Virus record (IMG/VR): IMGVR_UViG_2882178878_000003
Span: 21,909-85,908 of that record
Strand: one strand, 5' to 3'
DNA: 64,000 nt
Origin: a virus
Lineage: Duplodnaviria; Caudoviricetes
This document shows positions 185-49,300 of this stretch, piece by piece (the first letter of the stretch is position 1; each line of letters opens with the position of its first letter). The position numbers and the translations under genes are program-made. Under the pieces are notes generated by a model. The model ran no database searches and had not been told where the DNA came from. It was given only the letters and a program-made list of their open reading frames with translations.

Positions 185-245
185 TGTAGTACCTGTTGTA
201 GCATTTTATTCACCAAAATTTTGGTGCTAAATAAAAGGTGCTACA
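185..245. promoter_or_regulatory. Probable integrase arm-type sites (TGTAGYAYY / GGTGCTAMA)
   Basis: TGTAGTACC at 185, TGTAGCATT at 197, GGTGCTAAA at 223 and GGTGCTACA at 237. The same motif (TGTAGCACC) recurs at 60557-60565 just inside attR. Confidence 0.55.
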
Positions 246-249
246 TAAA

Positions 250-1464
250 ATGCCAAAGATCGTTAAACCCTTATCTGACGCGGAAATCAGGCGAGCCAAG
301 CCTAAGGATAAAGACTATAAACTACCTGATGGCATGGGCTTATCTGTGCTGGTGGATACCAAGGGTAATAAATACTGGCGCTTTAACTATCCTAAACCTT
401 ATACCAAGAAACGCAGCACGTTAGGCTGGGGCAGCTATCCAGATGTCACTTTAGCCGATGCACGCGAAAAGCGCGAAATTGCCCTGAAGCTATTAGAGCA
501 AAATATTGATCCGGTGGACTATAAAAAAACTGAAGCTGATAGTAATTCAGAGCTGGCCAAAAATACATTTAAACATATTGCCCTGGAGTGGCTGGATCGG
601 CAGGATAATTATGCAGATGCTACCCGTGCCAAAAGTATATATCTTCTTGAATGTGCTTTTGCGCTGATCGGTGATAAGCCTATAGCCAAAATTACGCCTT
701 TAGAAGTTCTAAGCGTATGCCGGGTTGAAGAACAAAAGGGCCTGCTAGAAAAAGCTTCAAAAATTAAATCAAAGTGCGCCCAGGTATTCCGGTATGCCGT
801 GGCCACTGGCCGTTGTGAGCGAGATCCAACGGTAGACCTACGTGGTGCACTGAAAACACCTAAAACCAAGCATCACGCTGCTGTGATTGAGCCGGAACGG
901 GTAGGTGAGCTGCTGAAGGATATTGACCAGTACAAAGGCCACATGATCACTCAGGCCGCCCTAAAAATCGCTCCATTAACATTTGTTCGCCCTGGTGAGC
1001 TTCGGTCAGCCAAATGGAGTGACATCGACCTTGATAAGAAACTGTGGACCTATACACCACGTAAAACGCAAAATTCCACCGCAGTAGATCACATTGTACC
1101 TTTGTCCACTCAGGCCGTGGCAGTGCTGTCTGATCTCAAAACACTAACTGGCCAAAGTGAGTATGTTTTCCCGTCCACCTTTTCCTTTCAAAAGTGTATG
1201 TCAGAGAACACAGTAAATCTGGCATTGCGCCGTATGGGTTGGTCTGGTGAGGAAATGTGTGGTCATGGATTCCGTGCAATGGCCCGGACAATACTGGAAG
1301 AAGTTTTGGAATACCCGATTGAAATTATTGAGCAGCAGCTGGCGCACCGGGTAAAGGATGTGCATGGCCGGGCATATAACCGAACCAAGCACTTGGCCAA
1401 ACGTACAGAAATGTTGCAGCGGTGGGCAGATTATTTAGATGAATTAAAGCAGAAATCAATTTGA
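250..1464 (+). CDS. int: Tyrosine recombinase/integrase, P4-like with N-terminal arm-binding domain
   Basis: Starts MPKIVKPLSDAEIRRAKP; catalytic R (VRPGELR), HGFR, QLAH and AYNR motifs; adjacent to att. The ORF track starts at 238, but the ATG at 250 is preferred. Confidence 0.95.
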   Translation: MPKIVKPLSDAEIRRAKPKDKDYKLPDGMGLSVLVDTKGNKYWRFNYPKPYTKKRSTLGWGSYPDVTLADAREKREIALKLLEQNIDPVDYKKTEADSNSELAKNTFKHIALEWLDRQDNYADATRAKSIYLLECAFALIGDKPIAKITPLEVLSVCRVEEQKGLLEKASKIKSKCAQVFRYAVATGRCERDPTVDLRGALKTPKTKHHAAVIEPERVGELLKDIDQYKGHMITQAALKIAPLTFVRPGELRSAKWSDIDLDKKLWTYTPRKTQNSTAVDHIVPLSTQAVAVLSDLKTLTGQSEYVFPSTFSFQKCMSENTVNLALRRMGWSGEEMCGHGFRAMARTILEEVLEYPIEIIEQQLAHRVKDVHGRAYNRTKHLAKRTEMLQRWADYLDELKQKSI

Positions 1465-6016: not shown

Positions 6017-6724
6017 TCAAAAAATCGTATACCGCCCCACGACCTTACCCACCAGCCTGCAGTTATGATCCACTGGCATGATCTTTTCATGCCAGTTCGG
6101 ATTTAACGCCCGTAAGTAATAACGACCACTTTCCACCACCAGTTCTTTAAACGTTGCCTCACAGTCACCGTCGCAGGCCATCACCACCAGATCCCCAGTA
6201 TTTAGCTCATCAATCTGGAAGGTAGGATTAACGTATATCCGATCATCAGGTTTAAACATCGGCTCCATGGACACGCCTTTAACGATCAAGCCAAAGCCGT
6301 TTTTACCGGCCCTAGGGTCATAAGGCAGCCATTCGATGATGTTGGATAAATCAGAGGCCATTACTGGTGTCCAGTCCCCAGCCTGCACCCATGAGATTAC
6401 CGGCATAGATGCGGGTGGCATATCAATAAGCTCGGTGCCAGTTGGTGGCAAAAAAGCTTTGCTGTTCCACTGATCTGGCGATTGTCCGGATTGAAATTGT
6501 TGTTGTGATTTAGGGCGAATTCCACCATAAAGAATATAATCAGTCGTAACACCAAAATGATCTGCTATTGCTTTTAAAGGTGCAGCTTTTGGTAAATAGC
6601 CATCCTTCTCCCATTCCGTTACGGCTGGAGCACTTACATCTGCAATTTTAGCTAACTGGGCTTGAGTTAGCTTTTTCTCTTTTCTTAGCGCACGGATGCG
6701 CTGCCCCACAGTTTGATTTTCCAT
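6017..6724 (-). CDS. cI: CI-like repressor (XRE HTH plus S24 autopeptidase)
   Basis: N-terminal HTH (IRALRKEKKLTQAQLAKIADVSAPAVTEWE); S24 motifs GVSMEP and ATFKEL; divergent from cro. Confidence 0.93.
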   Translation of the reverse strand: MENQTVGQRIRALRKEKKLTQAQLAKIADVSAPAVTEWEKDGYLPKAAPLKAIADHFGVTTDYILYGGIRPKSQQQFQSGQSPDQWNSKAFLPPTGTELIDMPPASMPVISWVQAGDWTPVMASDLSNIIEWLPYDPRAGKNGFGLIVKGVSMEPMFKPDDRIYVNPTFQIDELNTGDLVVMACDGDCEATFKELVVESGRYYLRALNPNWHEKIMPVDHNCRLVGKVVGRYTIF

Positions 6725-10882: not shown

Positions 10883-11000
10883 TCCTAATAAATCATGCAG
10901 GATTGTGTTGGAAAGTGGGAGGCGCTGATTGATGAAACAATCGGCACTGAATTCTTAAGGCTCACTACAGTGGGCTTTTTGTTGCAGTAAAAAGCCTGAA

Positions 11001-11645
11001 TTAATCAGGCTGATTGTAGTTACTTGTTGATGGCTTTAATGTCCATCGCTTCCATGCTTTTGCTTTGCCTGCCTTGACATTAAGCAACCCGGCTGTAGCG
11101 TTGCAGTATTCTCCGCCCGTACCGCGCTTGCCGCCTGTGCGCTTAAATACGGTGTCAGCAGGGGCAAATAAATGTGGGTTTTGGCGTACAAACTCATATA
11201 GATTTTTAAACTTGTACTCGGTGCCATCTGGTGAGATAAGCCACCAGTCTACTGCCTGCACATTAGACGCAAACTTGCCAGCAAGTGGACTAAGTTTAGC
11301 GGCCTCAGTTGCCATAATCTGGCCTGCATTGCTGTGTGGTGCACACTGCGGCTTTTTGGTGCCGATGTCCTTGCGTTTTGCCTTGCTGGCTGCTGCTGGT
11401 GCGCCAAGCTCCCAGCGTTTTTTGGCTACTGTGTCGTAAGCCAGTCCAAGATCACGGGCCAGCTCAGTATTGTTTTTTGACCAGTCTGCCTGTGACCAAT
11501 CCACTTTGCGCGGCTTTGGTTTAACTGTCTTGCCAAGCTTGGCGCGGTAGGTGTAGATCGTATGCAGCTTAACGCCCATCTTTGCTGCTATTACATCGTT
11601 GGGCTGGCTCCAGTCAATCGCCAGCCAGTCAGATTTACTTGCCAT
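11001..11645 (-). CDS. Tandem-HTH DNA-binding protein, third gene of the acr-like operon
   Basis: Two DWS..N..(I/L)A..(M/L)G HTH-like repeats; C-terminal WWLISPDGTEYKFKNLYEFVR module; very basic. Confidence 0.6.
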   Translation of the reverse strand: MASKSDWLAIDWSQPNDVIAAKMGVKLHTIYTYRAKLGKTVKPKPRKVDWSQADWSKNNTELARDLGLAYDTVAKKRWELGAPAAASKAKRKDIGTKKPQCAPHSNAGQIMATEAAKLSPLAGKFASNVQAVDWWLISPDGTEYKFKNLYEFVRQNPHLFAPADTVFKRTGGKRGTGGEYCNATAGLLNVKAGKAKAWKRWTLKPSTSNYNQPD

Positions 11646-11658
11646 AAATACCGTCAAC

Positions 11659-12159
11659 TTAAATGTTTTTTAGTGCATAGCGCGGATGCTGACCACAGGA
11701 CAATAAAAACATGCCCCAGGTGGTCGGGTGTGGTCGTTGCTCCCCCTTTTCCCAGCGCTGCCAGTTTGAGATATTAACGCCTGCTAACTTGGCGCATTTA
11801 GCCTGAGTGCCGACTTGTTTGCGCAAGTCTTTTATTTGCTCGGGTGTGGGTGGCTCAACGGGCACGTTATCCCATATTTGCACAGGCTGGTTGTACTCAG
11901 CTGCGACTGCATTAAACATGCGCTCGGCGGCCATATCTTTGTCACCACCATTGGTCAGGTGCGCTTGATACCATGTAGCGATTAACGCGCCCACATTGTC
12001 GGGGTTGGCAAAAATAGCGCGGTCAAGCTGGTTGTGGTCTGCCAGCTCATGGATTGCTGACCAGTTAAATTGCACGTGGCCGGTGTCCTGATCGTGCCAT
12101 AAGCCTAAATCAGCAAAATCCAGATTGTCCGGCACGCTAATTTGTTTTTGTTGTTGCAT
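11659..12159 (-). CDS. AcrIC6-like domain fused to a C-terminal XRE HTH (Acr-Aca-like fusion)
   Basis: The N-terminal ~90 aa align with the AcrIC6 C-terminal domain as recalled (MQQQ, PD..F.DL.L..D.D.G.V.F.W, DNV..LI..WYQAH...GG). C-terminal PTPEQIKDLRKQVGTQAKCAKLAGVNISNWQRWEKG is an HTH. A GGAG RBS precedes the ATG at 12159. Confidence 0.6.
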   Translation of the reverse strand: MQQQKQISVPDNLDFADLGLWHDQDTGHVQFNWSAIHELADHNQLDRAIFANPDNVGALIATWYQAHLTNGGDKDMAAERMFNAVAAEYNQPVQIWDNVPVEPPTPEQIKDLRKQVGTQAKCAKLAGVNISNWQRWEKGEQRPHPTTWGMFLLSCGQHPRYALKNI

Positions 12160-12203
12160 AGGTTGCTCCAAAAGATAAGCCCCATTGCTGGGGCCTTGTT
12201 GGT

Positions 12204-12470
12204 TTATAGGACTTCGATTGATTCAGGGTTGTCCCAGTCCAGGTTGTCGTCTTCCAGGCGGCCATCTTTGTAATTTTTAAATAACCAGGTTACGCGGTAT
12301 TCATTGCCATCTTTGTCGGTTGCTAGGGCGCTAAACTCATCCCAGTACATTTCACATTCTTCACCGTCTACTTCTTCAGTCCAGCTATCGTTAAACCAGC
12401 CTGCAAATACGCGGTTGGTGCGCTCAGCTTGGTCGGTAAAGGTTAGGTCATTGATAGTAATTGCGTTCAT
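12204..12470 (-). CDS. Small acidic Trp-rich protein; candidate anti-CRISPR/anti-defence protein
   Basis: 88 aa with 23 D/E, 7 K/R and 5 W; first gene after a strong promoter with an operator; GGAG RBS. Confidence 0.6.
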   Translation of the reverse strand: MNAITINDLTFTDQAERTNRVFAGWFNDSWTEEVDGEECEMYWDEFSALATDKDGNEYRVTWLFKNYKDGRLEDDNLDWDNPESIEVL

Positions 12471-12535
12471 TTTGATTCTCCGCCCGTGTAATGCGCTGGG
12501 CTTGCGCCGACTGCGTTATCGCTGTCTATGTAGCT

Positions 12536-12564
12536 ATATTACCGCGAATTGCGGTAAGCGTCAA
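12536..12564 (-). promoter_or_regulatory. Near-consensus sigma70 promoter with internal palindromic operator
   Basis: TTGACG (12559-12564), 17 bp, TAATAT (12536-12541). Perfect inverted repeat TTACCGC-GAATT-GCGGTAA at 12539-12557. Confidence 0.85.
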
Positions 12565-12589
12565 CACCTATATTTAATTATTTACTACC

Positions 12590-12620
12590 GTTCGTCGGAT
12601 TTGATCTGATGGGCTTTTTT
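12590..12620 (+). terminator. G-U-rich hairpin plus T6 (plus-strand only)
   Basis: 11-bp stem containing four G-U pairs, 3-nt loop, then TTTTTT. Confidence 0.45.
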
Positions 12621-12651
12621 GTCGCACTTGCATGAGTGTGTGGATTGGAAG
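12621..12651 (+). CRISPR. Solitary type I-C CRISPR repeat-like unit (not an array)
   Basis: GTCGCACTTGCATGAGTGTGTGGATTGGAAG matches the recalled I-C repeat GTCGCACTCTTCATGGGTGCGTGGATTGAAAT at 26/32 positions with one gap. The 7-bp stem CGCACTT/GAGTGTG is retained. Confidence 0.6.
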
Positions 12652-12655
12652 AACA

Positions 12656-12697
12656 CCCCTGTAAGGTTCGACACCTCCATTCCTATTGCCTGATTAT
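12656..12697 (+). promoter_or_regulatory. Late promoter motif copy 1 (terS)
   Basis: CCCCTGTAAGG at 12656-12666; TCGACA at +2; GATTAT at +26. Confidence 0.75.
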
Positions 12698-12720
12698 TAC
12701 CTTGTACAGAGGTAGTATCT

Positions 12721-13419
12721 ATGGCAGACGACAAAACCACAGACTGGAAAAAGATTGAGCTGGATTATCGCGCTGGCGTTAAAAGCTTGCGTCAGATTGC
12801 CAGTGAAAATGGTATTTCGGATACCGCCATTCGGAAGCGAGCCAAAAAGGATGAATGGACTCGTGATTTATCAGCACGTATTCAAGCTAAAGCAGATGAT
12901 CTGGTTCGCAAGGATCAAGTTCGCGCTGAGGTTCGCACAAGAACCACTGTTTCAGAGCGTGAGATTGTTGAATCAAATGCTCAGGCTATTGCTACTATCC
13001 AGCTTAACCACAGGAAAGACATTCAACGTTCCAGAAACATAGCCATGAATCTTATGGCTGAACTTGAGCAGCAATCTGGCCTTGATAACGCTGATTTGCT
13101 TGAGCAGCTTGGCGACTTGATGCGCAATGAGGATGACAAAGGGCAGGATAAATTAAACGATTTGTACTGCAAGATTATTTCTCTACCTGGTCGCGCTAAA
13201 ACCATGAAGGATCTGGGCGAATCATTACGGGTTCTGATTGGCCTTGAGCGCCAGGCATTTAATATGGATTCTGCCAATATCAATGATTCAGTTGCTGGTG
13301 GTACTGGCAAGCAAATGTCAGATGCTGAAAGGGCTGTTCGCCTATCACGCTTACTTCAATCCAATCCGGATGCATACCAAGCATTATTGGCGTTAAGAAA
13401 TGGTGGCAGTAATGGCTAA
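12721..13419 (+). CDS. Terminase small subunit (probable)
   Basis: N-terminal HTH (DWKKIELDYRAGVKSLRQIASENGISDTAIRKRAKK); directly upstream of terL. Confidence 0.75.
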   Translation: MADDKTTDWKKIELDYRAGVKSLRQIASENGISDTAIRKRAKKDEWTRDLSARIQAKADDLVRKDQVRAEVRTRTTVSEREIVESNAQAIATIQLNHRKDIQRSRNIAMNLMAELEQQSGLDNADLLEQLGDLMRNEDDKGQDKLNDLYCKIISLPGRAKTMKDLGESLRVLIGLERQAFNMDSANINDSVAGGTGKQMSDAERAVRLSRLLQSNPDAYQALLALRNGGSNG

Positions 13420-14962
13420 TGAAATAGAGCTAACGACTGCTTCATTGATGGAACTGCTTCAACATTTTGATCCTAAGGCACGCCAAGAACTCGACCAGCT
13501 ATTACTTGCTGGTGATGCGCCATTATGGGTACCACAAGAAGGCCCACAACAAACGGCTTATGACTCACAGGCCGATATTGTGTTTTATGGTGGTGCTGCT
13601 GGTGGTGGTAAGACTGATTTACTGCTGGGACTGGCTTTAACATCTCAACAGCATTCTATTATTTTCCGGCGTGAAGCAGTGCAGTTGGTTGGTATTGAAG
13701 AACGCATGACGTCGATTCTTGGTACACGTAAAGGCTATAACAGTCAGTCTGGTGTTTGGCGCTTGCCCGGTAACCGGGTAATGGAATTGGGCAGCGTAAA
13801 AGAGCCGGGTGACTGGATTAAATATCAAGGCCGCGCCCATGACGCCAAGCTATTTGATGAGATATGCCACTTTGCCGAATTGCAATTTAGAACATTGATT
13901 GGCTGGTTGCGTACCGATCAACCCGATATACGGCAGCGTGTCGTTTGTGCAGGCAATCCACCCACCACTGCAGAAGGTGAGTGGGTAAAGCGTTTCTGGG
14001 CTGCATGGCTAGATCCACAACATCCAAACCCGGCAAAGCCTGGTGAATTGCGTTGGTATGTCACCAATGAGAAAGGCGAGGACGAAGAAGTCCCCGGGCC
14101 TGACATGGTGAAAGTTGGCGACGACATGATGAAGCCAAAAAGCCGGACATTTATTCCATCTTCAGTCAATGACAACCTATTTTTACTTTCCACTGGCTAT
14201 AAGGCTACCTTGCAAGCCCTGCCTGAGCCACTGCGTTCACAAATGCTACGTGGTGATTTTAATGCTGGTGCAGCAGACCCGGCATGGCAGGTTATTCCCA
14301 CAGAATGGGTGAAAGCTGCCCAGGCACGCTGGAAACCACGTGAAGTAAAAGGCCCTATGACAGCTTTGGGTTTTGATCCGGCGCGTGGCGGTATTGATAA
14401 GTCATCACTGGCCAGACGCCATGACAACTGGTTCGATGAAATGATTTCTGCACCTGGTGCAGTCACGAAAGATGGCCCTACTGCTGCTGCATTTGTTGTG
14501 CCTTACATTCGTGATGGTGCATGTGTTTGTGTCGATAGCATTGGGATTGGTTCAAGTGCACTGGATTTCCTCGTAGGCCTTAATCTCAATGTGCTGGCTG
14601 TGGTTGGTAGTGAAGCTTCGCATGTTCAAACCAAGGCTGGAAACATCCGCATGCGCAATAAACGGGCTGAAATGTACTGGCGTTTGCGTGAGGCATTAGA
14701 TCCTACAGCACCTGAACCAATCGCGCTCCCACCAGATTCCGAGTTACTGGCTGATCTTACTGCTGTCCGTTACAAGGTGGTCACTATGGGCAAAGTGGCT
14801 GCCATTCAAATGCGCGATAAAGATGAGATTCGTGAAATGTTAGGCCGTAGCCCGGATAAAGGTGACGCTGTGGCAATGACTTTTGTGGAAGGCATACCAG
14901 ATTCCAATTCAACACGTGACACTTATGAGGAAGCAGAAGCCACAGACTGGCGCTATGCCTAG
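13412..14962 (+). CDS. Terminase large subunit
   Basis: Walker A YGGAAGGGKT, Walker B KLFDE, AGNPP, and nuclease motifs GFDPARGG.D and SPDKGDA. Confidence 0.92.
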   Translation: MANEIELTTASLMELLQHFDPKARQELDQLLLAGDAPLWVPQEGPQQTAYDSQADIVFYGGAAGGGKTDLLLGLALTSQQHSIIFRREAVQLVGIEERMTSILGTRKGYNSQSGVWRLPGNRVMELGSVKEPGDWIKYQGRAHDAKLFDEICHFAELQFRTLIGWLRTDQPDIRQRVVCAGNPPTTAEGEWVKRFWAAWLDPQHPNPAKPGELRWYVTNEKGEDEEVPGPDMVKVGDDMMKPKSRTFIPSSVNDNLFLLSTGYKATLQALPEPLRSQMLRGDFNAGAADPAWQVIPTEWVKAAQARWKPREVKGPMTALGFDPARGGIDKSSLARRHDNWFDEMISAPGAVTKDGPTAAAFVVPYIRDGACVCVDSIGIGSSALDFLVGLNLNVLAVVGSEASHVQTKAGNIRMRNKRAEMYWRLREALDPTAPEPIALPPDSELLADLTAVRYKVVTMGKVAAIQMRDKDEIREMLGRSPDKGDAVAMTFVEGIPDSNSTRDTYEEAEATDWRYA

Positions 14963-14973
14963 GAGAAAATAAC

Positions 14974-17226
14974 ATGCAGACCGTCGAAGAAAGCACTGCA
15001 CCCGTAATGCCGCAGTCAGATGATGTGCTAAGCCAGTATGAATATGCTGAAATCATTGGTGAGATTGAAGAACAGCCAGCCTGGCGCCGTGTGGCTGATA
15101 AGGAAATGGATTATGCCGATGGTAACCAGCTCAATGGTGAACTGCTGAGCCGCATGGCTGAATTGGGCATTCCGCCTGCGGTTGAGGATCTGATTGGTCC
15201 GGCACTGTTATCAATTCAGGGTTATGAATCCAAAACCCGGACAGACTGGCGTGTGACCCCTAACAATGGAAGCGACGGTCAGGACGTCGCAGACGCTTTA
15301 AACTTTAAGCTCAATCAGGCTGAGCGTGAATCTAAAGCAGATATGGCCTGTGGCAAAGCATTTAGGCCACAGATTGGTTGTGGCGTTGGCTTTGTAGAAG
15401 TATCAAAGGATTCTGACCCGTTTAAGTTTCCATACCGCTGTATGGCTGTGCATCGCAACGAGATCCACTGGGATATGAAAGCGATTGAGCCAGATTTATC
15501 TGATGCGCGCTGGTTGCGTCGTCGTCGCTGGTTGCATCCAAATCGGGTGAAGCTGGTATTCCCACAGCATGCTGAGCTGATTGATAACTGTGGTAAGCAT
15601 GGCGGTTCATGGTGGAGTGATGAAACCATCAATGAAGGTGGTGTCAGTACTGGCTTGCAGAACGCATGGAATGAAGCACGTGCATGGACACAGCAGGAAG
15701 ATTACTGGTACAACCCGGCTACCAAGGAAGTCTGCTTATCTGAACTCTGGTACCGTCGGTGGGTTCAGGTGCACGTCTTAAAAACATCAGATGGCCGTGT
15801 GGTTGAATATGATGAGGATAATGTGGCGCATAATCTGGCCATTGCCAGTGGTAAGGCCGAAGTACAGCTGGCGACTGTGACCCGTGTGCGTCGTGCTTAC
15901 TGGCTTGGCGGTCATTGCCTGTTTGATGGTCCAAGCCCATACACGCACCGGCATTTTCCCTATGTGCCGTTTTGGGGATTCCGTGAGGATAATACCGGCG
16001 TGCCATATGGCTATGTGCGCGGCATGAAATATGCGCAAGATAGTTTGAACAGCAGTATCAGTAAGTTGCGCTGGGGCATGAGTGTGACCCGGATTGAGCG
16101 CACCAAGGGCGCAGTTGATATGACTGACGCCCAGTTGCGTCGTCAGGTTGCAAGGCCTGATGCAGATATTGTACTGAACGCCAGCAAGATGGCTGAGCCT
16201 GGTGCACGCTTTGACGTCAAGCGCGACTACAACCTCACCGACCAGCATTACCAGATGCTCAATGACAACCGCAGTACCATTCAGCGCGTGAGCGCAGTCA
16301 CCAGCGGCTTTATGGGTAAGGAAGGCACTGCACGCTCAGGATTGCAGGAACAAACGCAGGTTGAACAGTCGAATCAGTCACTGGCCAGCGTCATGGACAA
16401 TTTCCGCTTTGGCCGTAGCCTGGTGGGTGAATTACTGCTGGCCATGATCATTGCAGACATGGGCAATAAAACACAAAGTATCGTAATTACTGGTGATGCG
16501 ATCCGGCCAGAACGCACCGTAGTGATCAATAAGCCGGAAGTTGATGAGCAGGGTTATCCATATCTATCCAATGACCTGCAGCGTACACGCCTGAAAGTTG
16601 CCCTTGAAGATGTACCAAGCACCAACAGCTATCGTGGCCAGCAGCTTAATGCCATGTCCGAAGCGGTTAAATCCATGCCGCCACAATACCAGGCTGCTGT
16701 TCTGCCATTCCTTGTATCACTTATGGACGTTCCATTTAAACAGGAAGTGGTTGAAGCAATTCGTGCCGTGGATCAACAACAGACACCAGAAGCCTTCAAT
16801 GAAGCGGTACAAAAAGGCATTGAGGAAGCGATGGTTAAGGCTGCCCATGATCTTAAACTGCGTGAGCTTGAGCTTAAAGAGCGTGTGGCGGAAAGCGAAA
16901 TTAAAGGTTTGGATGCCAAGGCAGTACAGATTGGTGTGCAGGCTGCGTTCTCTGCCATGCAAGGCGGTGCTCAGGTTGCGCAGATGCCGATGATTGCACC
17001 GATTGCTGATGAGATTATGAAAGGTGCAGGCTATAAAAAGCCTAACCCAATGGGTGATGATCCGAGTTTCCCAATGCCGCAGAATGTACCTGTGCCTACT
17101 GGCCAGCCCGCATTAACTGATGTGCATAAAAATACCAGCCCTACCTTTCCACCAGTGCCAAGTGATGGTGTATCATCTATGAGTGGGATTGAAACAGCCA
17201 GTGCCGCTGATAATTTACCAGCCTAA
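14974..17226 (+). CDS. Portal protein (podovirus type)
   Basis: 750 aa directly after terL; HRHFPYVPFWGFR..GVPYGYVRGMKYAQD..N motif. Confidence 0.85.
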   Translation: MQTVEESTAPVMPQSDDVLSQYEYAEIIGEIEEQPAWRRVADKEMDYADGNQLNGELLSRMAELGIPPAVEDLIGPALLSIQGYESKTRTDWRVTPNNGSDGQDVADALNFKLNQAERESKADMACGKAFRPQIGCGVGFVEVSKDSDPFKFPYRCMAVHRNEIHWDMKAIEPDLSDARWLRRRRWLHPNRVKLVFPQHAELIDNCGKHGGSWWSDETINEGGVSTGLQNAWNEARAWTQQEDYWYNPATKEVCLSELWYRRWVQVHVLKTSDGRVVEYDEDNVAHNLAIASGKAEVQLATVTRVRRAYWLGGHCLFDGPSPYTHRHFPYVPFWGFREDNTGVPYGYVRGMKYAQDSLNSSISKLRWGMSVTRIERTKGAVDMTDAQLRRQVARPDADIVLNASKMAEPGARFDVKRDYNLTDQHYQMLNDNRSTIQRVSAVTSGFMGKEGTARSGLQEQTQVEQSNQSLASVMDNFRFGRSLVGELLLAMIIADMGNKTQSIVITGDAIRPERTVVINKPEVDEQGYPYLSNDLQRTRLKVALEDVPSTNSYRGQQLNAMSEAVKSMPPQYQAAVLPFLVSLMDVPFKQEVVEAIRAVDQQQTPEAFNEAVQKGIEEAMVKAAHDLKLRELELKERVAESEIKGLDAKAVQIGVQAAFSAMQGGAQVAQMPMIAPIADEIMKGAGYKKPNPMGDDPSFPMPQNVPVPTGQPALTDVHKNTSPTFPPVPSDGVSSMSGIETASAADNLPA

Positions 17227-17234
17227 TGCAGTTA

Positions 17235-17275
17235 CCCCTGTAAGGCATGATTAATAAATACCACTTCTCAATAAT
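17235..17275 (+). promoter_or_regulatory. Late promoter motif copy 2
   Basis: CCCCTGTAAGG at 17235-17245; AATAAT at +25. Confidence 0.7.
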
Positions 17276-17316
17276 TAAGGTAAGCACTAACGCTTGCCTT
17301 TTTTATTGAGTGAAAC

Positions 17317-17733
17317 ATGAGCCAGTCTGAACAACAGATCGAGCAGGAAATCCAAGCCAAAGGCTTAAATGCACCACGTTTAACGCCTGCTGATATTGAC
17401 CGCGTGATTATTGGTGAACACTACTTCACTGCGGCACAAGGCACCGCAAAAGCCATGGAAGATGCTGCTTTTGTTAATGGGTCACTAAATGGCGCAGCAA
17501 TTTTACCAATACCTGCCACTTTGAATCTGCTCACATTCTGCGTACTAACTCTTGAAAACGGCTTTACCGTTACTGGTGAATCGGCATGTGCCAGTCCTGA
17601 AAACTTCAATGAAGAAATTGGCAAAAAGATTGCCTATGACAATGCCCGCGAAAAAATCTGGGTATTGGAAGGCTATTTGCTGAAACAGCGACTTTATGAT
17701 CAGGAACTTTGGCCTGCTTCATATCAGTATTGA
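17317..17733 (+). CDS. Phage Gp49/Gp66-family protein (candidate nucleotide-signal sponge)
   Basis: APRLTPADIDRVI...LTFCVLTLENGFTVTGESACASPENFNEEIGKKIAYDNAREKIWVLEGYLLK is the family signature. Confidence 0.8.
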   Translation: MSQSEQQIEQEIQAKGLNAPRLTPADIDRVIIGEHYFTAAQGTAKAMEDAAFVNGSLNGAAILPIPATLNLLTFCVLTLENGFTVTGESACASPENFNEEIGKKIAYDNAREKIWVLEGYLLKQRLYDQELWPASYQY

Positions 17734-17743
17734 GTAATACATA

Positions 17744-17926
17744 ATGGCCTGCCGTCCTGAGTGTTGCGCATGTCTGGAAGGGCTGACCCAAGACGGGTTG
17801 GCCCTGACCAATGCTGACTATGACAAGGCTATGGCCATTATTGAACAGCGCACGGATCTCACTGAAACCCAGCGGGAACAAATGCGCATTTATGTCTGGC
17901 ATTTATTTGATGCCCATAATATTTAA
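17744..17926 (+). CDS. Small hypothetical protein
   Basis: 60-aa ORF with C-x3-C-x2-C. Confidence 0.45.
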   Translation: MACRPECCACLEGLTQDGLALTNADYDKAMAIIEQRTDLTETQREQMRIYVWHLFDAHNI

Positions 17927-17942
17927 ATGAGAGTACGGTTAT

Positions 17943-18179
17943 ATGTTTAATCCACCTCATGTTGGTGAAGTGCTGCGGGAATATATTGATCAAACGCCGA
18001 TTGAGATTGTTGCCAAAGAATCTGGCTTATCTATAGCGCGTCTTTCTGATGTACTGGCTGGAAATACTGCTATTACGCCAGATGATGCTAATGGGCTGGC
18101 AAAAGCACTTAATACATCGTCACAGTTCTGGTTAGACCTGCAAGCACAATATGAAAGCAAGCAAAGTGCAGATCTGTAG
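17943..18179 (+). CDS. higA: HigA-family antitoxin-like HTH protein
   Basis: NPPHVGEVLREY...AITPDDANGLAKALNTSSQFWLDLQAQYE. Confidence 0.8.
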   Translation: MFNPPHVGEVLREYIDQTPIEIVAKESGLSIARLSDVLAGNTAITPDDANGLAKALNTSSQFWLDLQAQYESKQSADL

Positions 18180-18453
18180 ATCAGCCAAGCGATTGCAGGC
18201 CATTCGTACTTTACCTTGCGTACGTTGTGGCAATCCGGATAGTCAGGCAGCCCATAGTAATTTTGCGGAGCATGGTAAGGGCAAAGGTATAAAAGCCAGC
18301 GATGAGTTCACCATTCCCTTATGTATTACCTGTCACCAATGGTTTGACCAGTATCAGGGCATGACTGTGGATCAGAGCAGGACATGGTTTGTGGAAATGC
18401 TGGATAAGACCAATCGTATGTTGAGTGTTGGCGATGGCCACGAAGTATTCTAA
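18151..18453 (+). CDS. DUF968-like zinc/HNH-type protein
   Basis: LPCVRCG..SQAAHSN..GKGKGIKASDEFTIPLC..CH..FD. Confidence 0.75.
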   Translation: MKASKVQICRSAKRLQAIRTLPCVRCGNPDSQAAHSNFAEHGKGKGIKASDEFTIPLCITCHQWFDQYQGMTVDQSRTWFVEMLDKTNRMLSVGDGHEVF

Positions 18454-18931
18454 AAAAACATTTATTGTCAGGTCAGAGCAGCACTTAACCAGTGCTGTTG
18501 GCCATTTGCTGCAAAACTATCAGGCTGCTATTAATGATGATAAGCCGTTGCATGTGCATGTGACCACCAAGCAGGACAGTCGCAGTGTGGCACAGAACCG
18601 CTTGTACTGGATGTGGCTTGGCCAGATTGAAAAGGAAACCGGCAATGATAAAGATGATTTGCACTTTGAGTTTAAAAAGAAATTTCTGATTGCCATTTAT
18701 GAGCGAGATGACCAGCAGTATGCAGAGATGTGCCACGCCATCAAGGCACTCAGGCAAAGTCATTCAGAACAATATGCGGCGGTGGCAGCTGGTGTAATCC
18801 GGGAAACATCAACAACCCGGATGACGCCCAAGCAGTTCACAGAATATTTAAATTCCATCCATGACTATACGCTGGTGAGGTTAGGTATTCTGCTGGCCAT
18901 ACCGGATGAGTTACGGTTTGCTTTTGAATAA
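18425..18931 (+). CDS. ninB: NinB (Orf)-family recombination protein
   Basis: RSVAQNRLYWMWLGQI and STTRMTPKQFTEYLNSI motifs. Confidence 0.8.
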   Translation: MLAMATKYSKKTFIVRSEQHLTSAVGHLLQNYQAAINDDKPLHVHVTTKQDSRSVAQNRLYWMWLGQIEKETGNDKDDLHFEFKKKFLIAIYERDDQQYAEMCHAIKALRQSHSEQYAAVAAGVIRETSTTRMTPKQFTEYLNSIHDYTLVRLGILLAIPDELRFAFE

Positions 18932-19049
18932 AATATTTAAAATTCATATGATTGTATATACAGCAAGGCTTTGAAAGCACTGCTGGTGGCTGTAGAATTA
19001 TTGATGCAACATATGATTTGATAAATAATTAAACAGGAATCTAATAATC

Positions 19050-37182: not shown

Positions 37183-40100
37183 ACATGACATTGTTTATTC
37201 CAAACATGAAAGCCATGGATGAGTCGATTGATCAAGTTAACGACAAAATGAAATATTTTGAGGGGAAGGCAAATAGCTTTTCGGCCGCCCTTGCCAAAGA
37301 ACTAAGTAATATTTCAAATATCCAGTTTGATGAGATTGGCGATGCACCTTCGCTCACTCCAAATAATGGCCTTGATTCCCTGAGTCCAGTGGTTCTCCCG
37401 GAGCTTTCTGCGCCCGACATTGCACCCCCTGTGCTTGACCGACAGGATGTGGTTGCATTATCAACACCCGCGCCGCTTGATATTGCGCCACTAAATCTAA
37501 CTATTGAGCAGCCCGTATTGCCCAATCTGGATAATACATTTAATCCGGTAAGTTACACGCCGATTGATGACATTAATCGGATTCAGGCACCTGAAATAAT
37601 TGGCGACATCAAAGCTCCAGTAATGGAGTTGCCAGACTTAAAATCCCCACAAGCACCCGCTCTTGTCAATAAGCCAACTATTAATCTAGATATCGCTGCA
37701 CCCGTATTGCCCAATCTGGATAATGCATTTAATCCTGTTGGCTACACAGCCATTAGTGATATCGCTGGCCTGGAAGCGCCAAGAATTGACACGGAAATTA
37801 AGGGAAGTCATCTAGAGTTGCCGGAATTCAAGACGACACAAGCACCTGCACCACTACAAAGACCAAATGTTAATCTGGATATTGATATCCCAGTGTTACC
37901 TGATCTTCCTAGTCAATTTGCAGAAGTAGCTGAGGATTTTAGCTATGATGCACCATCCATTGAATTTGACACTATTCCTGCCCCACTTAATGACGATGTG
38001 AATTTTACCAGTAAGTTGCCCACACTGGATATTTCAAATTTGATGGGTGCACTGGATTTTACCCTGCCTGACATGCCGGACGTGCCAGTTGGTTTTGATA
38101 TTGCGATGCCAGCTGTGCCAGATATTAATACAGGATCTGCGCCTTTAGCTCCGGCCATTGATACAACCATTAATCTGCCCAGCGCACCTGAACTCAACCT
38201 ACCTGAAATGGAGGCACTTGAGGCAATTGAGTTACCCTCTTTTGAGTTTGAGGGAGTGCCTGAGTTTGATGAGGAAGCACCTGTCTTTGAGATTGATGCA
38301 TCTGTATTTAGTGATATTGACCAGGCGCTGACTGATGCGGTTGAGGTACTATCCAAAGACTACTTTGAGCACAATAAAGATTCAGTCATTAGTCCGTTGA
38401 TGACTGAGATTAAAAATTGGCTTGAAGGTGGTCACCCGGGAACAGGATTGCCTGCATCTGTGGAATCCGCATTATTCAACCGGGCTGTTGACCGCGAAAG
38501 CCAGCAAACCAGACGTGCAGTAAGTGAAGCTGTTAATGAGTGGGCAGCACGTGGTTTCTCTATGCCGCAGGGAATGTTGCAAAAGCAGATTAGCGCTATC
38601 CGTGATGACGCCAGATTAAAATCGGCTGACTTAAACCGTGAAATTATGGTGCAGTCGTTTGACAAGCAGCTTGAACATATTCGCTTCTTAACCACCCAAG
38701 GTATGGCGCTGGAAAAAATGCGTATTGATTTGTGGACTGCCTACACAGCCAACATGATGCAAGTGGTGCAGCTTCAAGTAGAAAGCAAGATAAATATGTT
38801 AAATGCACAAATCAGTTTATTCAATGCTCAAGCCAGTGCATTTGAAACACTGGTGACGATATATAAAACCAAAATCGAAGGAGCAATTGCCAAAATTACA
38901 GCGTATAAAGCGCAGGTTGATGCACAAATGGCAATTGGGCAAATCAACCAGCAAAAAATAGAGATATTCAAAGGCAAAATCGAAGTGGTATTGGCCAATG
39001 TGGACGTTTACAAAGCTTTGATCCAGGGTGAAAGCGCTCGGTCTGATGCGATTAGGAATCAGATTGATGTTTATAAAACTGAAGTATCTGCATATGCCGA
39101 GGAGATGTCCGCCCAAAAGGCCAGAATTGATATTTTTAATGCTCAGGTCAATGCAGAAACTGCCAGAGTGGGCATGTTTGAATCAATATCAAGAAACTAT
39201 GCCACAACTATCCAGGGAATTGGTGTGCAAGCTGATGTCAAGAATAAGCAGCAGGGGCTAATTATGGAGGAGGCGCGGCTAAAATTACAGGAATTTAGCG
39301 CACTCATGGATCTTGAAAAGTCGGAAATATCAACCCGACTGGCGATTGCCCAGAACAATACCAATAATTTTGTCAGGCAGGTCGAGTGGGTTAAGGCGGT
39401 TAGCGATCAAAAGTCAAGGAAGGCCGATCTTGAAATGAAGTCACTGGATGCCAAGCAGCGTACAGTCATTGCCAATGCTGATTTACGCGGCAAGTACGCG
39501 GATATCAATTCTAGAATTATTCTTGCCAATGCAGACATGCAGGGCAAGTACATGGATATTAAGTCGCGTTCTGCAATGGCCAAGCTTGATAGTGAAATGA
39601 AGTACGTCGATATCCAGTCACGTATTGATCTGAGTAACGCTGAAATTGAGGCGAAATATGCAGGCATGGATGTACAGGTCAAGACAGCCAAGCTGGATGC
39701 AGACAGTAAAGCACTGGATGCACAAATCAGGGTGGCTACGGCTAATGCTGATTTACAATCTCGTCACTTGGATAATCTGACTAAAGTTGGGATTGCCAAT
39801 GCCGATGCAAACATCAAAGTCAGTATGGCCAACGCAGAAATGCAGGGTAAATATGCAGATATCAATTCCAGAATGGTGATTTCAGGGGCAGAGTTGCAGG
39901 GCAGGTTTGCCGAGATTCAATCAAGAGTAGCAATGGCCAAGCTTGATAGTGAAATGAAGTACGTCGATATCCAGTCACGTATTGATCTGAGTAACGCCGA
40001 GATTGCAGCCAAGTATGCCGATATGGATATCAAGGCTAAAACTGCCAAGCTGGATGCTGATGGCAAGGTATTGGAGGCCAATGTACGCATTGCAACTGCC

Positions 40101-43339: not shown

Positions 43340-46300
43340 ATGTCTGATTCTAAAATTGACTGGAGCAAGGGCACTTTAACTCAACCAGCAAACCCCGAAA
43401 ATAATAATGAAGCCATTGATTGGAATAACGGCACTTTAACCCATCCTGATGAGATCCCAGTAAAAAAGAATAAGGGTATAGTTGGTCATCTTCAAGATAC
43501 TGCCGCTTCCCTTGCTTCGGGTCTGGCATCAGTGCCAGATATGGCTGTTGGCGTTGCCGATATGTACACCGAAGGGCGTGCAGGCAAGGCAATAGATGAT
43601 ACTGGCGTTTATAAAATGGGTGAAGCCAGTAAATACTGGCAGGACAAAAAAACCGATATTGCCAAAGAACAGGATATAACCCGCCAAAGCACCGAGGGGA
43701 TCTGGAACAAAACCAAATATGTTTTGGAAAACCCCTCACAAATTACCAATGCAGTAGTGGAGTCAGCACCTTCAATTCTGGCAGGTGGGGTTGCCGGGCG
43801 CATATCCAAAATTGCCAATCCGTTGGTGGCTGGTGCAGTTGGCGAAGGGATAGTGGGCGCCGGTGCACAGGCCGAAAATATCCGGCAACAAACCAATGAC
43901 GGCTTGCTGGATAATGGCCAGCAAGCCGCTGCTGCGGGAACTGGCGCTTTAACGTCCCTGTTTAGCATGGCTGGCGGTAAGCTGGCGCAAAAAATGGGGA
44001 TTGGTGATGTTGATACTTTGCTAACCCGAGGTCATGCCACACCAGCACAAGTTGCAGGTGAAATCGCATCCATGCCTGCAAAGAGTTTACCGCGTAAAGT
44101 GATTGAAGGTGCAATCTCAGAAGGCTTTTTGGAAGAATTGCCGCAGTCAGTATCTGAGCAGATCATTCAAAATCTGGCACTAGATAAGCCATGGCATGAA
44201 GGGGTTGAAGATGCTGCCGTCATGGGAACACTGGCAGGCATGGCAATGGGTGGCGGTATCGCACCTTTCCATGGCAACCCACCCACCAGCCCATCTGGAC
44301 AGGACAATAGTCTGCCACCTGAAAACCCTAATAATCCATTAGCACCATTACCAGCACCAGCAGGAAATGATCTTGGCAGCACCCCCATGGAAGGTGAATA
44401 TATTCCCAGGCCCAATAGCCAAGATCCAGCACAGGCGGGGCGCACACCAGAAACGGTAGACGGAACAGCAACAGAATGGTTTGACCGTGAGCGCCTGCAA
44501 AATGCACCAGCCAATACCTCACCTGATTTACTGACTGGTATTGAAAACCAGCCTGAGGCATTTGATGCACCAGCAAATCCAGCCTTGCCAGCCCCATCAA
44601 TTGAGCCAGCCAAACCCTCAGAACAATTAGGCCTTGACCCCAATGCAGGTTCACTATCCGCTGCTGCTGCTTTGGCCGTAGATAGTGGCGCTTCACCACA
44701 TATTACTAACCCAGATACAGCAATCAATCAGGTGGATGAGTCGGCACAGGCAGCGGGTGATCTCACAAAACCACGCACCACTGCTGATGACATCAAGAAT
44801 GGCTTTAACGCTTTGGCTGGTGGCGCTGTTGATGCCATGGTGGAACGCACCAGTGATTTATTGCAAGCGGGGCAAGATGTAACCTTTTACAAGCCTGATT
44901 CCATTGCCAGCGCCCTGCAAAATCCCAACTATCATGTACAGCAAAATGAGGACGGTTCAGCAACAGTGCTAGGCGCACTTGATCCACGCACGAATGAATG
45001 GATAGGTCAGGCACCAGCCCAGCCAGATACATCACAACAAATTACCCCAGCGGATAATGGTCAGGACATTAATACTTCTCGACAGCGCAGCAATACGAAC
45101 CGAACTAACGAGCAGGTAATGGATGATGCATTGGCTGCGGTGCAACGAACCAAAGATAAATTAAATGATCCTTCTCGCTATCCTGAACTGCATACCGAGC
45201 AAGCAATCAATGAGCGCAAGGACTATGAACTGCCCGGTGGCTATGTACGCTCGCTTGCAGATCAGCTATCTAGTGGTGAGGCAGTTGAGGCGAATAATAG
45301 CCGCCGCGCCAATATATTTTTAAATAATCCAAATTTTAATGCTGCCAAGAATGAAGATGGCGTAGTAGCTGTTCTAGGGATTAAGCATCCTGATACCGGT
45401 GAATGGGTAGGTCGGGCACCCGAGCAGACCACCACAAGCAATCCGGCTGCTGCAGCGCAATCACCAGCAGCACAGGAGCAATCCCCGCAAGCACCAACAC
45501 TCACCAGCGAATACGCCCCCGGTTCTGTACCGCATGCGCGTGATATTGCCACACAAGCATTAGAGCAATACAGCGGCGATACCACAGGTTTAACTGACAA
45601 AGGCCAGTCATTAACCAGCCATAGCCCTGCTGCTGATCTTATTTACTACAAAAATTCCCCATCCTTTAGCAATGTAGAAGTGCAGGATGCTGGTGATAAG
45701 GCAGTCGTGCAACTAACCAATGCCAAAACCGGTGCAGTTGAAACCCGTGACTATCCGCAAAGTCTGGTTGGCTTTAATCAGTTTTTAGATGGCGGTCAGG
45801 CTGAAACTACCCCCGCACAGGCAAGCAGTGCAACTACTGCACAGCCAACAGAAAGCAATCAGGTTGAGCAGCTAGAACAGCAGCTTGCTGATACTAAAAA
45901 CGTGGCGCAAAAGGCACAGCTACGCAAACAGATTAATGAATTAAAGGTACAGCAGGGTGAGCAGGCTGCACCGGTACTTGGTGCTGATGGCAATAATAAA
46001 TGGTTTGGAAGCCAGCAAAAGGCACAAGGCTTTATTGATAAAAATAAACTTGATGATACTCACCAGGTTGTACAGACTGAAAAGAACCGTTTTGAGATTC
46101 AGCCTAAACAGCCTGCTACGCAGAACGTACAAGATGCGCCGCAGAGTGTAGAGCCAGCAGTACAACAGCAAAATGCAGAAGTACCAAACCCGTATAAAGA
46201 GAATCAATTACGGGCCAATGTGCGAAACATTAACACCCAGGTAAGCAGCAATGCGAAAGATGCTACTACAAGACCACAAGCCTTTAACCAGGAAGTGCAG

Positions 46301-49300
46301 AAGCAATACCCAGGTCTATATGCACGCGCAGAAGCATTAGCTAAAACAGCAAAGACCACGCCAGCAGGCCGCCGTGGTAATACTCAATTTTCAAGTCTAA
46401 GTTTTGATGGTGATAAAACATATCAATCTGGCGACCCGTACCCAAAAAAGCCAACAAAAGACGAAGTTTTACAGCAAGCAATCTGGCATCTGTCACAAGA
46501 TGATAAAAACAATGAATCTCATGCTTGGGATAATTTAGATGAACAGCAAAAAACCGAAGTTTTAAAGCGTGCTGGTTGGAAAACTAACGCAGGCGGCCTA
46601 AATGTTATCGGTAAGAAATTACTGAAACAAAATTCTACTGCTGTTAATACTGAAACAATGAAAATCATTGAACGCAATATGCCTGGGAACCAGGGAGTAC
46701 AGCAGCAGTCAGTCAAGCCAGCATCTACCGATGCCAAGTCGATGACAGAAGCCGAATTTGATCAGGCTATGAACAGCGAGGCTGGTGCAAGGTCATTAGT
46801 CGATAAGGGTATCAGTGCCGGGTTATTCACCCAGCAGGATATAGATACCGTTACCAATGGAAACTTTGCAGCAGGCTGGACACAGCTAGACCAAAACGAC
46901 AGTCTTAAGTCCCTGTTTAAATCCAAAGGGCTGATTCAAGGGCAGGCACAGCAACCCGCCCAACAAGGTACAGCTAAACCCAAGACCGTCACCACCTCAT
47001 CTGGCAAACAGATTGAGGTGCGCTTCAAGGTGGTGGAGGCATCAGAGCTTGGCACGTCACACACTGGCAATGGTGCAATCAATCCGGCATACCCACAGGA
47101 ATTACAGCCGCGTGACCGTTCACGTTCAGCATCCATCAACCAGATTAATGACATTGCCGCCAACCTAAACCCGCACATGCTTGGCGATAGCCCCACGGTG
47201 ACTGATGGCGCCCCAATTGTATCGAGTGACAATATCGTAGAAAGCGGCAACGGACGCACCCTGGCAATTACCAAAGCCTACCAGACTGGACGCGGCGAAG
47301 CATACAGACAGCATTTGCGTGATGCGGGTTATGACGTTAACGGTATGCAGCAGCCGGTGCTGGTGCGCGAGCGCGTCACTCCCATGACCATGCAGGAGCG
47401 TATTGAGTACACCGGCGAAGCCAATCAGCGCAACACATTGGGGTTAAGCGTATCTGAGCAAGCCGAACAGGATGCCAAGAAGTTAAGCAGCCGTGTGACC
47501 AGCCTGTATCGCGGCGGGGATATTAATTCACCCACCAATACGCCATTCATTAAGGCGCTGATGAATGAAGTGGTACCGCAGTCCGAGCATGGCAACATGC
47601 AACAAAAGGACGGACAGCTATCACAAGATGGTAGGCGTCGGATTCAAGCGGCGCTACTGCAAAAAGCCTACGGCGATTCTGCCTTAGTGACCGAAGTATT
47701 TGAAAGCACTGATACCGAGATTGCTTCCATTGGTAAAGCCTTGCTGGATGTGGCCGGCGAATGGGCATTGATGCGTGATGGCGTGCAAAATGGCGAGCTG
47801 CTACAGGACGTTGATGTTACCGCTAACCTGATGGAGGCAGTGCGTATTGTGCAAAAAGCGCGAGCCGAGCGCCGTTCAATTGCCGAAGTAGCAAGACAGG
47901 ATGATATATTTAGTGGCACTATTGACCCGGTAACAGAGGGCTGGTTGTCGGTATTTTATCGGGGCGATCATTTCAACAGAGCCAGAAGCCGCGAGAAGGT
48001 ATCAGGTGCTCTGTCTTATTATGTAGGTCAGGCCAGCCTATCAACCAAGGGTGAGAATCTGCTGGGTGAAACCGCCCCCGGTGGACGTGAAATTTTAGGA
48101 GCGACCAATGAGCGAACCAGAAAGCAAGAACAAGACACGCAACAAGACATCTTCAGCAGCCCGCGAGCTAATGAATCGAACCCTGCTGAATCTGGCAGAG
48201 CAGGACAAGGACGTACCACTGAAAAACAGAATGAAGAAGCAGCTAAGCCAGAAGTAGGGCGGGAAAAATCTGATGTTCAGGTAATGTCAGAAAATAAAGG
48301 GGATATTGCAGAGGATATTGCCAGAGAAATCCAGCGCGTCAATCGGCTAAAGCAGTCGATAAGAAAGCAAGGCAAGCAAACATCATTACAAGCAGACAGA
48401 AGTAAAGTAGCTAAAAAGTGGGGGTTAAATCCTGTAGGTTGGGGTAAGTTCGATATTGTTTTTGGTGCAGCAGTATTAGCTGACGTGGCTGCTGGCTTTG
48501 ATTCAAATGCGAGTTTTGAGCAGTTAAAGGCTGCTGCAATCAAAAAAATTGATGAGCTTGTTGAAGCTAAAGCAAAAGAGGGAGTCGCCGTTAAAGCGCC
48601 CGATACACATGCAGGCGTTAGTCCTGCCTCATTTAAGGCACTGCAAGACTTGCGACTGGCACCGCACCCTAAAACCCTCGAGGGACTGCTGGAACAGTAT
48701 GAACAAACTCGTGATGCTGCCAATCAGATAGCCGCCGAAGCCACTGATCCGGCAGTAAGCAAGGCGTATAGACAGCAAGCCGATATGTATGAGGCAGAAG
48801 CTCGAATCGTAAGGAGTGAGCTGGGCACAAAAAAACAGGAACAAACTGAAAACAGTAAGCCAGACCTGGTAGAAGAAATCCAGTCGATGAGCCTGGATGA
48901 TATTTCTGCCTTGTTTGATGAAGTGGCGCAGGAAAATAACGCGGTTGAAACCAGTAAGCCAAAAGCTAAACGTAGCACTAAAGGCAAAACTGCTACAGGC
49001 AAACCACGGCCAAAGCCAAAGGAAGCCCAAGCTGAAAAGATTGATCCTGAAAACAAAGAGGACACCAAGCGTACCGCAAGCGCGATTGCAAAAGACATTG
49101 GTGCAAACCTAAGTGACGCTGGTTTAAATGCGCTGGATGGCTTAGCCAAGCTGTTTGGTGGCAATGGCAAGATGAATAGCGGCCTATCATTTGATGAGGA
49201 CACCTACGCCAAAGCCAAGCCGCATTTTGTGCAATCAGCCAAAAGCACCATTGAGGCAGGCAAGAACCTAAAAGACTTAATCCGCGCCCTGATTAATGCG

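Follow-up and report, generated by a model that had tools for sequence, protein, structure and literature searches.

The fusion gene and its product

The stretch of DNA analysed here (the window) comprises 64,000 nucleotides (nt) of a Caudoviricetes genome, positions 21,909 to 85,908 of IMG/VR virus record IMGVR_UViG_2882178878_000003. Within it, a minus-strand gene at positions 11659-12159 encodes a protein that joins two domains: one related to AcrIC6, an anti-CRISPR (Acr) protein directed against type I-C CRISPR-Cas systems, and a helix-turn-helix (HTH) domain related to the anti-CRISPR-associated (Aca) repressor Aca10. The window holds an integrated prophage, with an integrase gene, an S24 repressor gene, a P22-like portal and the host gene proS on its right (Table 1). 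The gene is a real open reading frame (ORF) for a two-domain protein of 166 amino acids (aa) and is the second of three genes in an operon; a GGAG motif sits 6 nt before its ATG at 12159, and four orthologues have the identical start position.

An AlphaFold2 model built from 71 aligned sequences has a mean predicted local distance difference test score (pLDDT) of 87 and divides the protein into a helical N-terminal domain (residues 1-90, pLDDT >90) and a four-helix HTH domain (residues 104-155), joined by a low-confidence linker. Purifying selection is strong on both domains, the ratio of non-synonymous to synonymous substitution rates (dN/dS) against an orthologue from a metagenomic contig (L023) being 0.08 for the N-domain and 0.05 for the HTH at a dS of about 1-2.

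The N-terminal domain belongs to the AcrIC6 family

A BLASTP comparison aligned residues 1-88 of the fusion with residues 41-130 of the 144-aa AcrIC6 of Pseudomonas citronellolis (L009:3001-3432), with 35 identities in 91 positions (38%, E 9e-19). This agrees with a preliminary description, made from the sequence alone, in which the N-terminal part of a two-domain protein was called AcrIC6-like, and AcrIC6 residues 1-40 have no counterpart in the alignment, so that the same description was also right that an extra N-terminal segment of AcrIC6 is absent here. The comparison was made with the operon copy of P. citronellolis, an orthologue, and not with the AcrIC6 record WP_080050315.1 itself (144 aa; supplements of PMC7913775, PMC12248084 and PMC8949011). 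Where the preliminary description gave the AcrIC6 peptide DNVASLIIGWYQAHRADGG, the P. citronellolis protein has DNVAGLVISWYQAHRQRGG.

The P. citronellolis locus (L009, strain LMG 18378) was indicated by a 144-aa family member, P0180. It carries the Aca10 operator ATACGCTCATTGAGCGTAT at 2582-2600, followed by a 94-aa gene, the 144-aa gene and the exact sequence of 7XI5, the crystal structure of Aca10 in the Protein Data Bank (PDB) (PMC9410881). Because the 144-aa gene lies between the published operator and the 7XI5 gene, we identify it as acrIC6; the locus is the operon acrIC7-acrIC6-aca10 described by León et al. 2021 and by Lee et al. 2022. The acrIC6 and aca10 genes adjoin there, sharing an ATGA overlap.

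All residues that are invariant in the family (IP, F, L, L, WY, H, GG and D; alignments A1 and A3) are retained in the fusion, among them P10, F15, L18, W63, Y64, H67 and G71/G72. An exhaustive phmmer search of 1.84 billion representative proteins found 163 clusters at E <= 1e-3, including 144-aa AcrIC6-type proteins; most of these clusters are free-standing proteins of 90-110 aa, and several are 140-148 aa long with the core at the C-terminus. A word-indexed homologue search with the N-domain returned only the three closest fusions. Free-standing homologues of the core (30-41% identity), all annotated as hypothetical, were also seen on nine conjugative plasmids from Nitrosomonas, Delftia, Cronobacter, Marinobacter and others (records AP019756.1, CP078109.1 and NZ_CP065697.1 among them).

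The family libraries Pfam, PHROG and NCBIfam did not recognise the N-domain, and searches with its fold gave nothing meaningful: the best match in the PDB by Foldseek had an E of 1.7, the wide VIA-align search reached at most Z 3.7 with rows for Cse2/CasB within the noise (Z 2.6-3.2), and the ESM Atlas searched by shape yielded template modelling (TM) scores of at most 0.39. Likewise, nothing meaningful was found in BFVD, in the Atlas searched by features or in a profile search against the PDB.

The C-terminal domain is of the Aca10 type

The C-terminal half contains an XRE-type HTH, as had been proposed; the match to Pfam HTH_31 lies below the gathering score (E 1e-4), and across the whole PDB the best sequence match of residues 103-155 is 7XI5 (E 4.5e-8). 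In a BLASTP comparison residues 104-153 share 43% identity with Aca10 residues 6-56 (E 6e-13), and Foldseek with the model ranked 7xi5_A first (TM 0.90, target-normalised; root-mean-square deviation 1.0 Å; 39% identity). Since residues 1-88 match AcrIC6 and residues 104-153 match the Aca10 encoded next to it, the 166-aa protein is a fusion, collinear with two genes that lie side by side in P. citronellolis.

The fusion HTH and Aca10 (WP_074980464.1; PDB 7XI5; PMC9410881) share their fold, a 19-bp palindromic operator within their own promoter and a location directly after an AcrIC6-type sequence. They differ in size, Aca10 being a small free-standing protein of 65 aa whereas the HTH of the fusion is a domain of a 166-aa protein, and at R44 of Aca10, a residue critical for DNA binding that aligns to Q141, with R142 next to it. 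A free-standing 78-aa version of the fusion HTH exists in a related genome (L025), and it begins with the linker, starting MYPVQIWNNLPTEPP.

The next-best PDB match of the HTH, to the antitoxin MqsA, raises the question of whether the fusion is an MqsA-like antitoxin, with an HTH that autoregulates and an N-domain that neutralises the toxic product of a gene next to it. MqsA (PDB 3GN5/3FMY) has the same two-domain layout with a C-terminal HTH of the same subfamily, and is likewise encoded downstream of its partner gene. The HTH of the fusion matches 3fmy (E 1e-4), TIGR03830 (E 1.8e-6) and PF15731 (E 0.003), the latter two far below their cut-offs (for TIGR03830, 27.7 bits against 61.8, over the HTH only). 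Aca10 is nevertheless the better match by both sequence and fold. There is also no Cys pair in residues 1-100 of the fusion, and so no zinc-binding CxxC N-domain of the MqsA kind, the N-domain being AcrIC6-like instead; the neighbouring genes match no toxin family in Pfam, PHROG or NCBIfam, leaving the fusion without an MqsR-like partner; and the upstream gene, whose product is acidic, changes from locus to locus although operator and HTH are retained. With no zinc domain, no toxin and a closer relative in Aca10, an antitoxin role is very unlikely.

A putative operator in the promoter of the operon

The operon is preceded by a sigma-70-like promoter, and the site at which the preliminary description had proposed a test of HTH binding is a real inverted repeat, TTACCGC-N5-GCGGTAA (Table 1), of which the perfect sequence occurs once in the 3.06-Mb genome. 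The Aca10 operator is likewise positioned in a promoter (PMC9410881), although its sequence, ATACGCTCA-T-TGAGCGTAT, is a different one.

Two further loci have kept the promoter, both half-sites (TACCGC-N5-GCGGTA) and some 70 nt of the 5′ untranslated region (UTR), while the first genes differ in all three. The metagenomic contig (L023) has a different 104-aa acidic first gene followed by a fusion gene that is 87% identical, and a genome of the same family as the host (L025:724-1752) has the same promoter and operator, a DUF3560 gene and then the free-standing 78-aa protein, which is 75% identical to the linker and HTH. The first-gene slot is thus swappable, with the operator and the HTH travelling together in the pattern of acr-aca operons. 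As the DUF3560 gene is driven by the same operator and promoter and precedes an Aca10-like gene, it is a candidate for anti-defence cargo. Among the 200 genomes searched from the host's family, no other full-length fusion was found.

Table 1. Positions of the features discussed in the text, in window coordinates
Feature	Position	Strand	Remarks
Integrase gene	238-1464		prophage
S24 repressor gene	6017-6724		prophage
Terminator-like hairpin and T-run	10993-11011	-	operon end; scan
Third operon gene (P0003)	11001-11645	-	214 aa; two weak HTH-like repeats; C-terminal domain with a match to a PDB chain that bears the name 'HNH endonuclease'
Fusion gene, Aca10-type HTH	11659-11850	-	residues 104-166 and stop; sequence and fold matches to PDB 7xi5
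Fusion gene, linker	11851-11889	-	residues 91-103; pLDDT about 58 for residues 91-100
Fusion gene, AcrIC6-core domain	11890-12159	-	residues 1-90; acidic, net charge about -9; BLASTP, pLDDT
GC-rich hairpin	12177-12196	-	between first gene and fusion gene; terminator-like scan
First operon gene (P0002)	12204-12470	-	88-aa acidic orphan, candidate new anti-CRISPR; translation
Sigma-70-like promoter	12536-12564	-	-35 TTGACG (12564-12559), 17-nt spacer, -10 TAATAT (12541-12536); consensus scan 9/12
Putative operator, 19-bp palindrome	12539-12557	.	TTACCGC-GAATT-GCGGTAA; inverted repeat of 7+7 nt, 100% complementary; fills promoter spacer, overlaps -10
Solitary repeat-like unit	12621-12651	+	resembles host I-C repeat
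Protospacer of spacer 11	13293-13326	-	1 mismatch, TTC PAM
Imperfect protospacer	17811-17842		1 mismatch, TTC PAM
Imperfect protospacer	17947-17978		1 mismatch, TTC PAM
Imperfect protospacer	18410-18441		2 mismatches, TTC PAM
Imperfect protospacer	38158-38189		2 mismatches, TTC PAM
Protospacer of spacer 33	38999-39029	-	perfect, TTC PAM
Protospacer of spacer 15	39923-39955	-	perfect, TTC PAM
ORF in prophage late region	43340-58279	+	single ORF, 4979 aa
Protospacer of spacer 16	45476-45508	-	perfect, TTC PAM
Protospacer of spacer 55	47207-47239	-	perfect, TTC PAM
Protospacer of spacer 60	49139-49173	-	perfect, TTC PAM; spacer nearest cas2
Host gene proS	61369-63087		right of prophage
PAM, protospacer adjacent motif.

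Self-targeting of the prophage by the host type I-C system

The host genome (G000) encodes a complete type I-C system on contig C12, with seven full-length Pfam matches in the order cas3-cas5-cas8c-cas7-cas4-cas1-cas2. Next to the cas operon lies an array with 61 repeats, whose sequence is typical of type I-C, and 60 spacers (array and cas genes at C12:6866-10803 and 10999-18951). At the end away from cas2, the last five repeats have a variant sequence.

Matches to the prophage exist for ten of the 60 spacers, every one with the canonical 5′-TTC protospacer adjacent motif (PAM); five of the matches are perfect (spacers 15, 16, 33, 55 and 60), while single mismatches occur in three and double mismatches in two. 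The ten protospacers all lie on one strand, in three clusters. Spacer 60, the one nearest cas2, is probably the newest, and the restriction of the matches to one strand, together with this perfect cas2-proximal spacer, would be consistent with primed acquisition. Three of the five perfect spacers (16, 55 and 60) match a single long ORF in the late region of the prophage.

In bioinformatic work, perfect, PAM-flanked self-targeting alongside intact cas genes is the standard indication that an inhibitor is at work, and the host's array and cas operon therefore support the view that the prophage encodes an anti-CRISPR against type I-C at some place.

Tolerance of this kind might also arise if the fusion silenced the host cas operon by binding its DNA, in the manner of CasPR, instead of binding a Cas protein. 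There is a precedent in DNA-binding Acr proteins that prevent the transcription of cas genes (bioRxiv 10.64898/2026.02.23.707548), and the fusion has an HTH in a lysogen that tolerates self-targeting; against this, the perfect operator is found only at the operon's own promoter, and the cas contig carries just two of the 125 two-mismatch sites in the genome. Because operator copies within the cas genes or close to them do not exceed what chance would give, we give this explanation hardly any weight.

The AcrIC6 core as a portable module

AcrIC6 residues 3-41, in the region of the segment missing from the fusion (L009:3001-3120, and likewise in P0180), match residues 9-47 of AcrIF25 (PDB 8JDH and 8JDI; E 2e-8 with 8JDH). 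AcrIF25 is reported to have a ribbon-helix-helix (RHH) domain, probably a built-in regulator, which its Acr activity does not require and in place of which a homologue has an HTH (bioRxiv 10.64898/2026.07.27.740549); the protein works through its C-terminal domain (PMC13131331). The AcrIF25-like stretch of AcrIC6 would correspond to this reported RHH; if so, AcrIC6 consists of an RHH and the core, and the protein in the window of the core and an Aca10-type HTH, so that AcrIC6 itself looks like an RHH-effector fusion. The preliminary description had spoken of a rearranged architecture: the layout it gave is borne out, but the wording is better replaced by a swap of the DNA-binding module, in which the N-terminal AcrIF25-like segment was lost and a C-terminal Aca10-type HTH gained.

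AcrIF25 and the fusion are alike in this modular exchange of RHH and HTH, and AcrIC6 shares the N-terminal stretch, probably the RHH, of AcrIF25. Their effector domains, in contrast, are unrelated, that of AcrIF25 (C-terminal) stripping Cas7f off the type I-F Cascade. We know of no mechanism of the Cas7f-stripping type for AcrIC6.

Other members of the family carry the core in comparable company. Two metagenomic proteins (P0103 and P0131) have an Aca2/YdiL domain (PF08965, E about 1e-14) N-terminal to the AcrIC6 core and would represent a second, independent kind of Aca-AcrIC6 fusion, and P0015-17 and P0144 have the core with a C-terminal HTH. To judge from these architectures, the core behaves as a portable module that has repeatedly been paired with Aca-type DNA-binding domains, which fits an effector under built-in regulation. 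The clade of Aca10-like HTH domains to which that of the fusion belongs (about 60% identical) is also found fused to an unrelated N-domain of about 110 aa with no family match, in metagenomic proteins of 160-173 aa (P0008-P0014); these may be further effector-Aca fusions.

Neighbouring genes and other candidate inhibitors

The 88-aa product of the first gene has no match in Pfam, PHROG, NCBIfam or the PDB and a single homologue among 5.8 billion proteins. It shows no similarity to AcrIC7, the identity of which had been considered for it.

Beyond the promoter, at a distance of 57 bp, lies a solitary unit that agrees with the host I-C repeat in about 24 of 31 positions and keeps the GTCGCAC and GTGGATTG ends; it is absent from the otherwise similar upstream region of L023. 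This unit is possibly an RNA anti-CRISPR.

A GCCCC-loop-GGGGC hairpin precedes the ribosome-binding site of the fusion gene closely in three of the four fusion loci, L018 and L020 included, with a T-run behind it in L020. Read-through into the repressor gene may be attenuated by this hairpin. The predicted RNA structure of the 5′ UTR was no better than that of shuffled sequences (z -1.1).

Residues 109-209 of the third-gene product match PDB 9kja with an E of 2.2e-26. In a DNA search of the phage collection with the operon, the sole match was one of 111 bp to an inovirus, inside the part of the third gene that encodes this C-terminal domain. The third position in L023 is occupied by a different, 141-aa gene with the same NQPD ending.

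Proposed repressor and inhibitor functions of the fusion

We lean towards the reading that the fusion is a bifunctional, self-repressing Acr-Aca protein. Its repressor half is well supported by homology, by the fold model of the HTH and by the position of the operator and its conservation across loci, which upholds the regulatory part of the earlier suggestion of a self-regulating inhibitor comparable to AcrIF24. The inhibitor half we infer, as we do DNA binding and dimerisation by the fusion itself. The case is strengthened by the specific likeness of the HTH to Aca10 and, for the inhibitor half indirectly, by the host's intact I-C operon with its five perfect TTC-flanked spacers against the prophage. 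The C-terminal HTH, presumably a dimer like Aca10, would bind the 19-bp palindrome in its own promoter spacer and, when bound, would repress the three-gene operon of the 88-aa orphan, the fusion gene and the 214-aa gene with HTH- and HNH-like parts. The acidic AcrIC6-core domain most likely binds a type I Cascade (I-C, perhaps I-E) and may contribute to stopping the host I-C system from cutting the resident prophage. As a consequence of the fusion, a single autoregulated transcript would yield inhibitor and repressor at a constant ratio of 1:1.

AcrIF24, AcrIIA1 and AcrIIA13-15 (listed in PMC9410881) similarly combine an inhibitor and an HTH that represses its own operon in one polypeptide, as is predicted for the fusion. 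Their inhibitor domains, however, are unrelated to that of the fusion and their targets are the I-F and II-A systems, whereas both halves of the fusion are known as separate neighbouring genes, which makes the fusion event traceable. With AcrIC6 the fusion shares a homologous core with the invariant residues, an acidic character and a gene that lies on a mobile element, in an operon under repressor control; where AcrIC6 has its N-terminal segment of about 40 residues and a GQxxSHxPGRA tail, the fusion has a C-terminal HTH instead.

Several observations weigh against a bifunctional protein. To our knowledge, the mechanism of AcrIC6 has not been established and nobody has mapped the part of it that bears the activity. 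The fusion lacks both the 40 N-terminal residues of AcrIC6, a segment that is also missing from many free-standing family members, and the C-terminal tail that is common to most of them, and the identity of its N-domain to AcrIC6 is only 38%. On the DNA-binding side, the glutamine at the position of Aca10 R44 has to be considered, the orthologues having ERRP or DRRP there. Factors other than the fusion could account for the tolerated self-targeting, namely the 88-aa orphan, the solitary repeat, another prophage gene or a transcriptionally silent cas operon, and the fusion is not singled out as the inhibitor, the 88-aa acidic protein being an equally good or better candidate. In addition, the genome is an 88-contig draft, so that the origin of the array contig and the prophage contig from the same cell is assumed; no sequencing run contained more than one-third of the sampled words. 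AcrIC6 is also the weakest of the published I-C inhibitors, with an efficiency of plaquing of about 0.01, although it also blocked I-E CRISPR interference (CRISPRi); that AcrIC6 homologues have I-C (weak) and I-E activity speaks for the bifunctional reading (PMC7913775).

These points bear on the alternative that the fusion is a repressor (Aca) only, with an N-domain that serves as a non-inhibitory accessory or oligomerisation part, while the real I-C inhibitor is the 88-aa orphan, the solitary repeat RNA, a gene elsewhere or a combination of these. The swappable first slot, filled here by an 88-aa acidic near-orphan, in L023 by a 104-aa acidic protein and in L025 by DUF3560, is the usual position of the Acr in acr-aca operons, and the solitary unit with its likeness to the host repeat, the weakness of AcrIC6 and the loss of its N-terminal segment and tail from the fusion all speak for this view. 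The N-domain, however, is a member of a family for which Acr activity has been shown by experiment, has kept every invariant residue and evolves at a dN/dS of 0.08. The same HTH also occurs without the N-domain as a 78-aa gene, and so the N-domain should not be needed for repression; moreover, the family consists mostly of free-standing proteins of about 100 aa on plasmids and phages, which fits an effector better than an accessory of a regulator. A role as repressor only is accordingly possible, but we regard it as doubtful.

Finally, it is improbable, though conceivable, that the fusion acts as a target-sensing switch, in which Cascade bound to the AcrIC6-type domain pulls or holds the repressor off its operator. 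Derepression of the operon, its upstream orphan inhibitor included, would then scale with the amount of free Cascade, and the operon would be switched off once all Cascade was neutralised; if this were true, the feedback would keep the cost of withstanding five perfect self-targeting spacers minimal for the prophage.

Implications

Fusions of Acr and Aca functions (AcrIF24, AcrIIA1 and AcrIIA13-15) are already known, as are AcrIC6 and Aca10 separately, and the searched literature that mentions AcrIC6 or Aca10 does not describe a fusion of the two. With both halves known as separate, adjacent genes in P. citronellolis, the fusion provides a functional link between the weak, poorly understood AcrIC6 family and regulation of the Aca type. 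The lysogen is a natural test bed, with an intact I-C system, five perfect PAM-flanked self-spacers and three candidate anti-I-C factors in a compact locus, and it could possibly yield a stronger I-C inhibitor, the active part of AcrIC6 and an answer to whether an inhibitor-repressor fusion gives dosage control. A stronger inhibitor would matter because type I-C systems are used for large-deletion genome editing.

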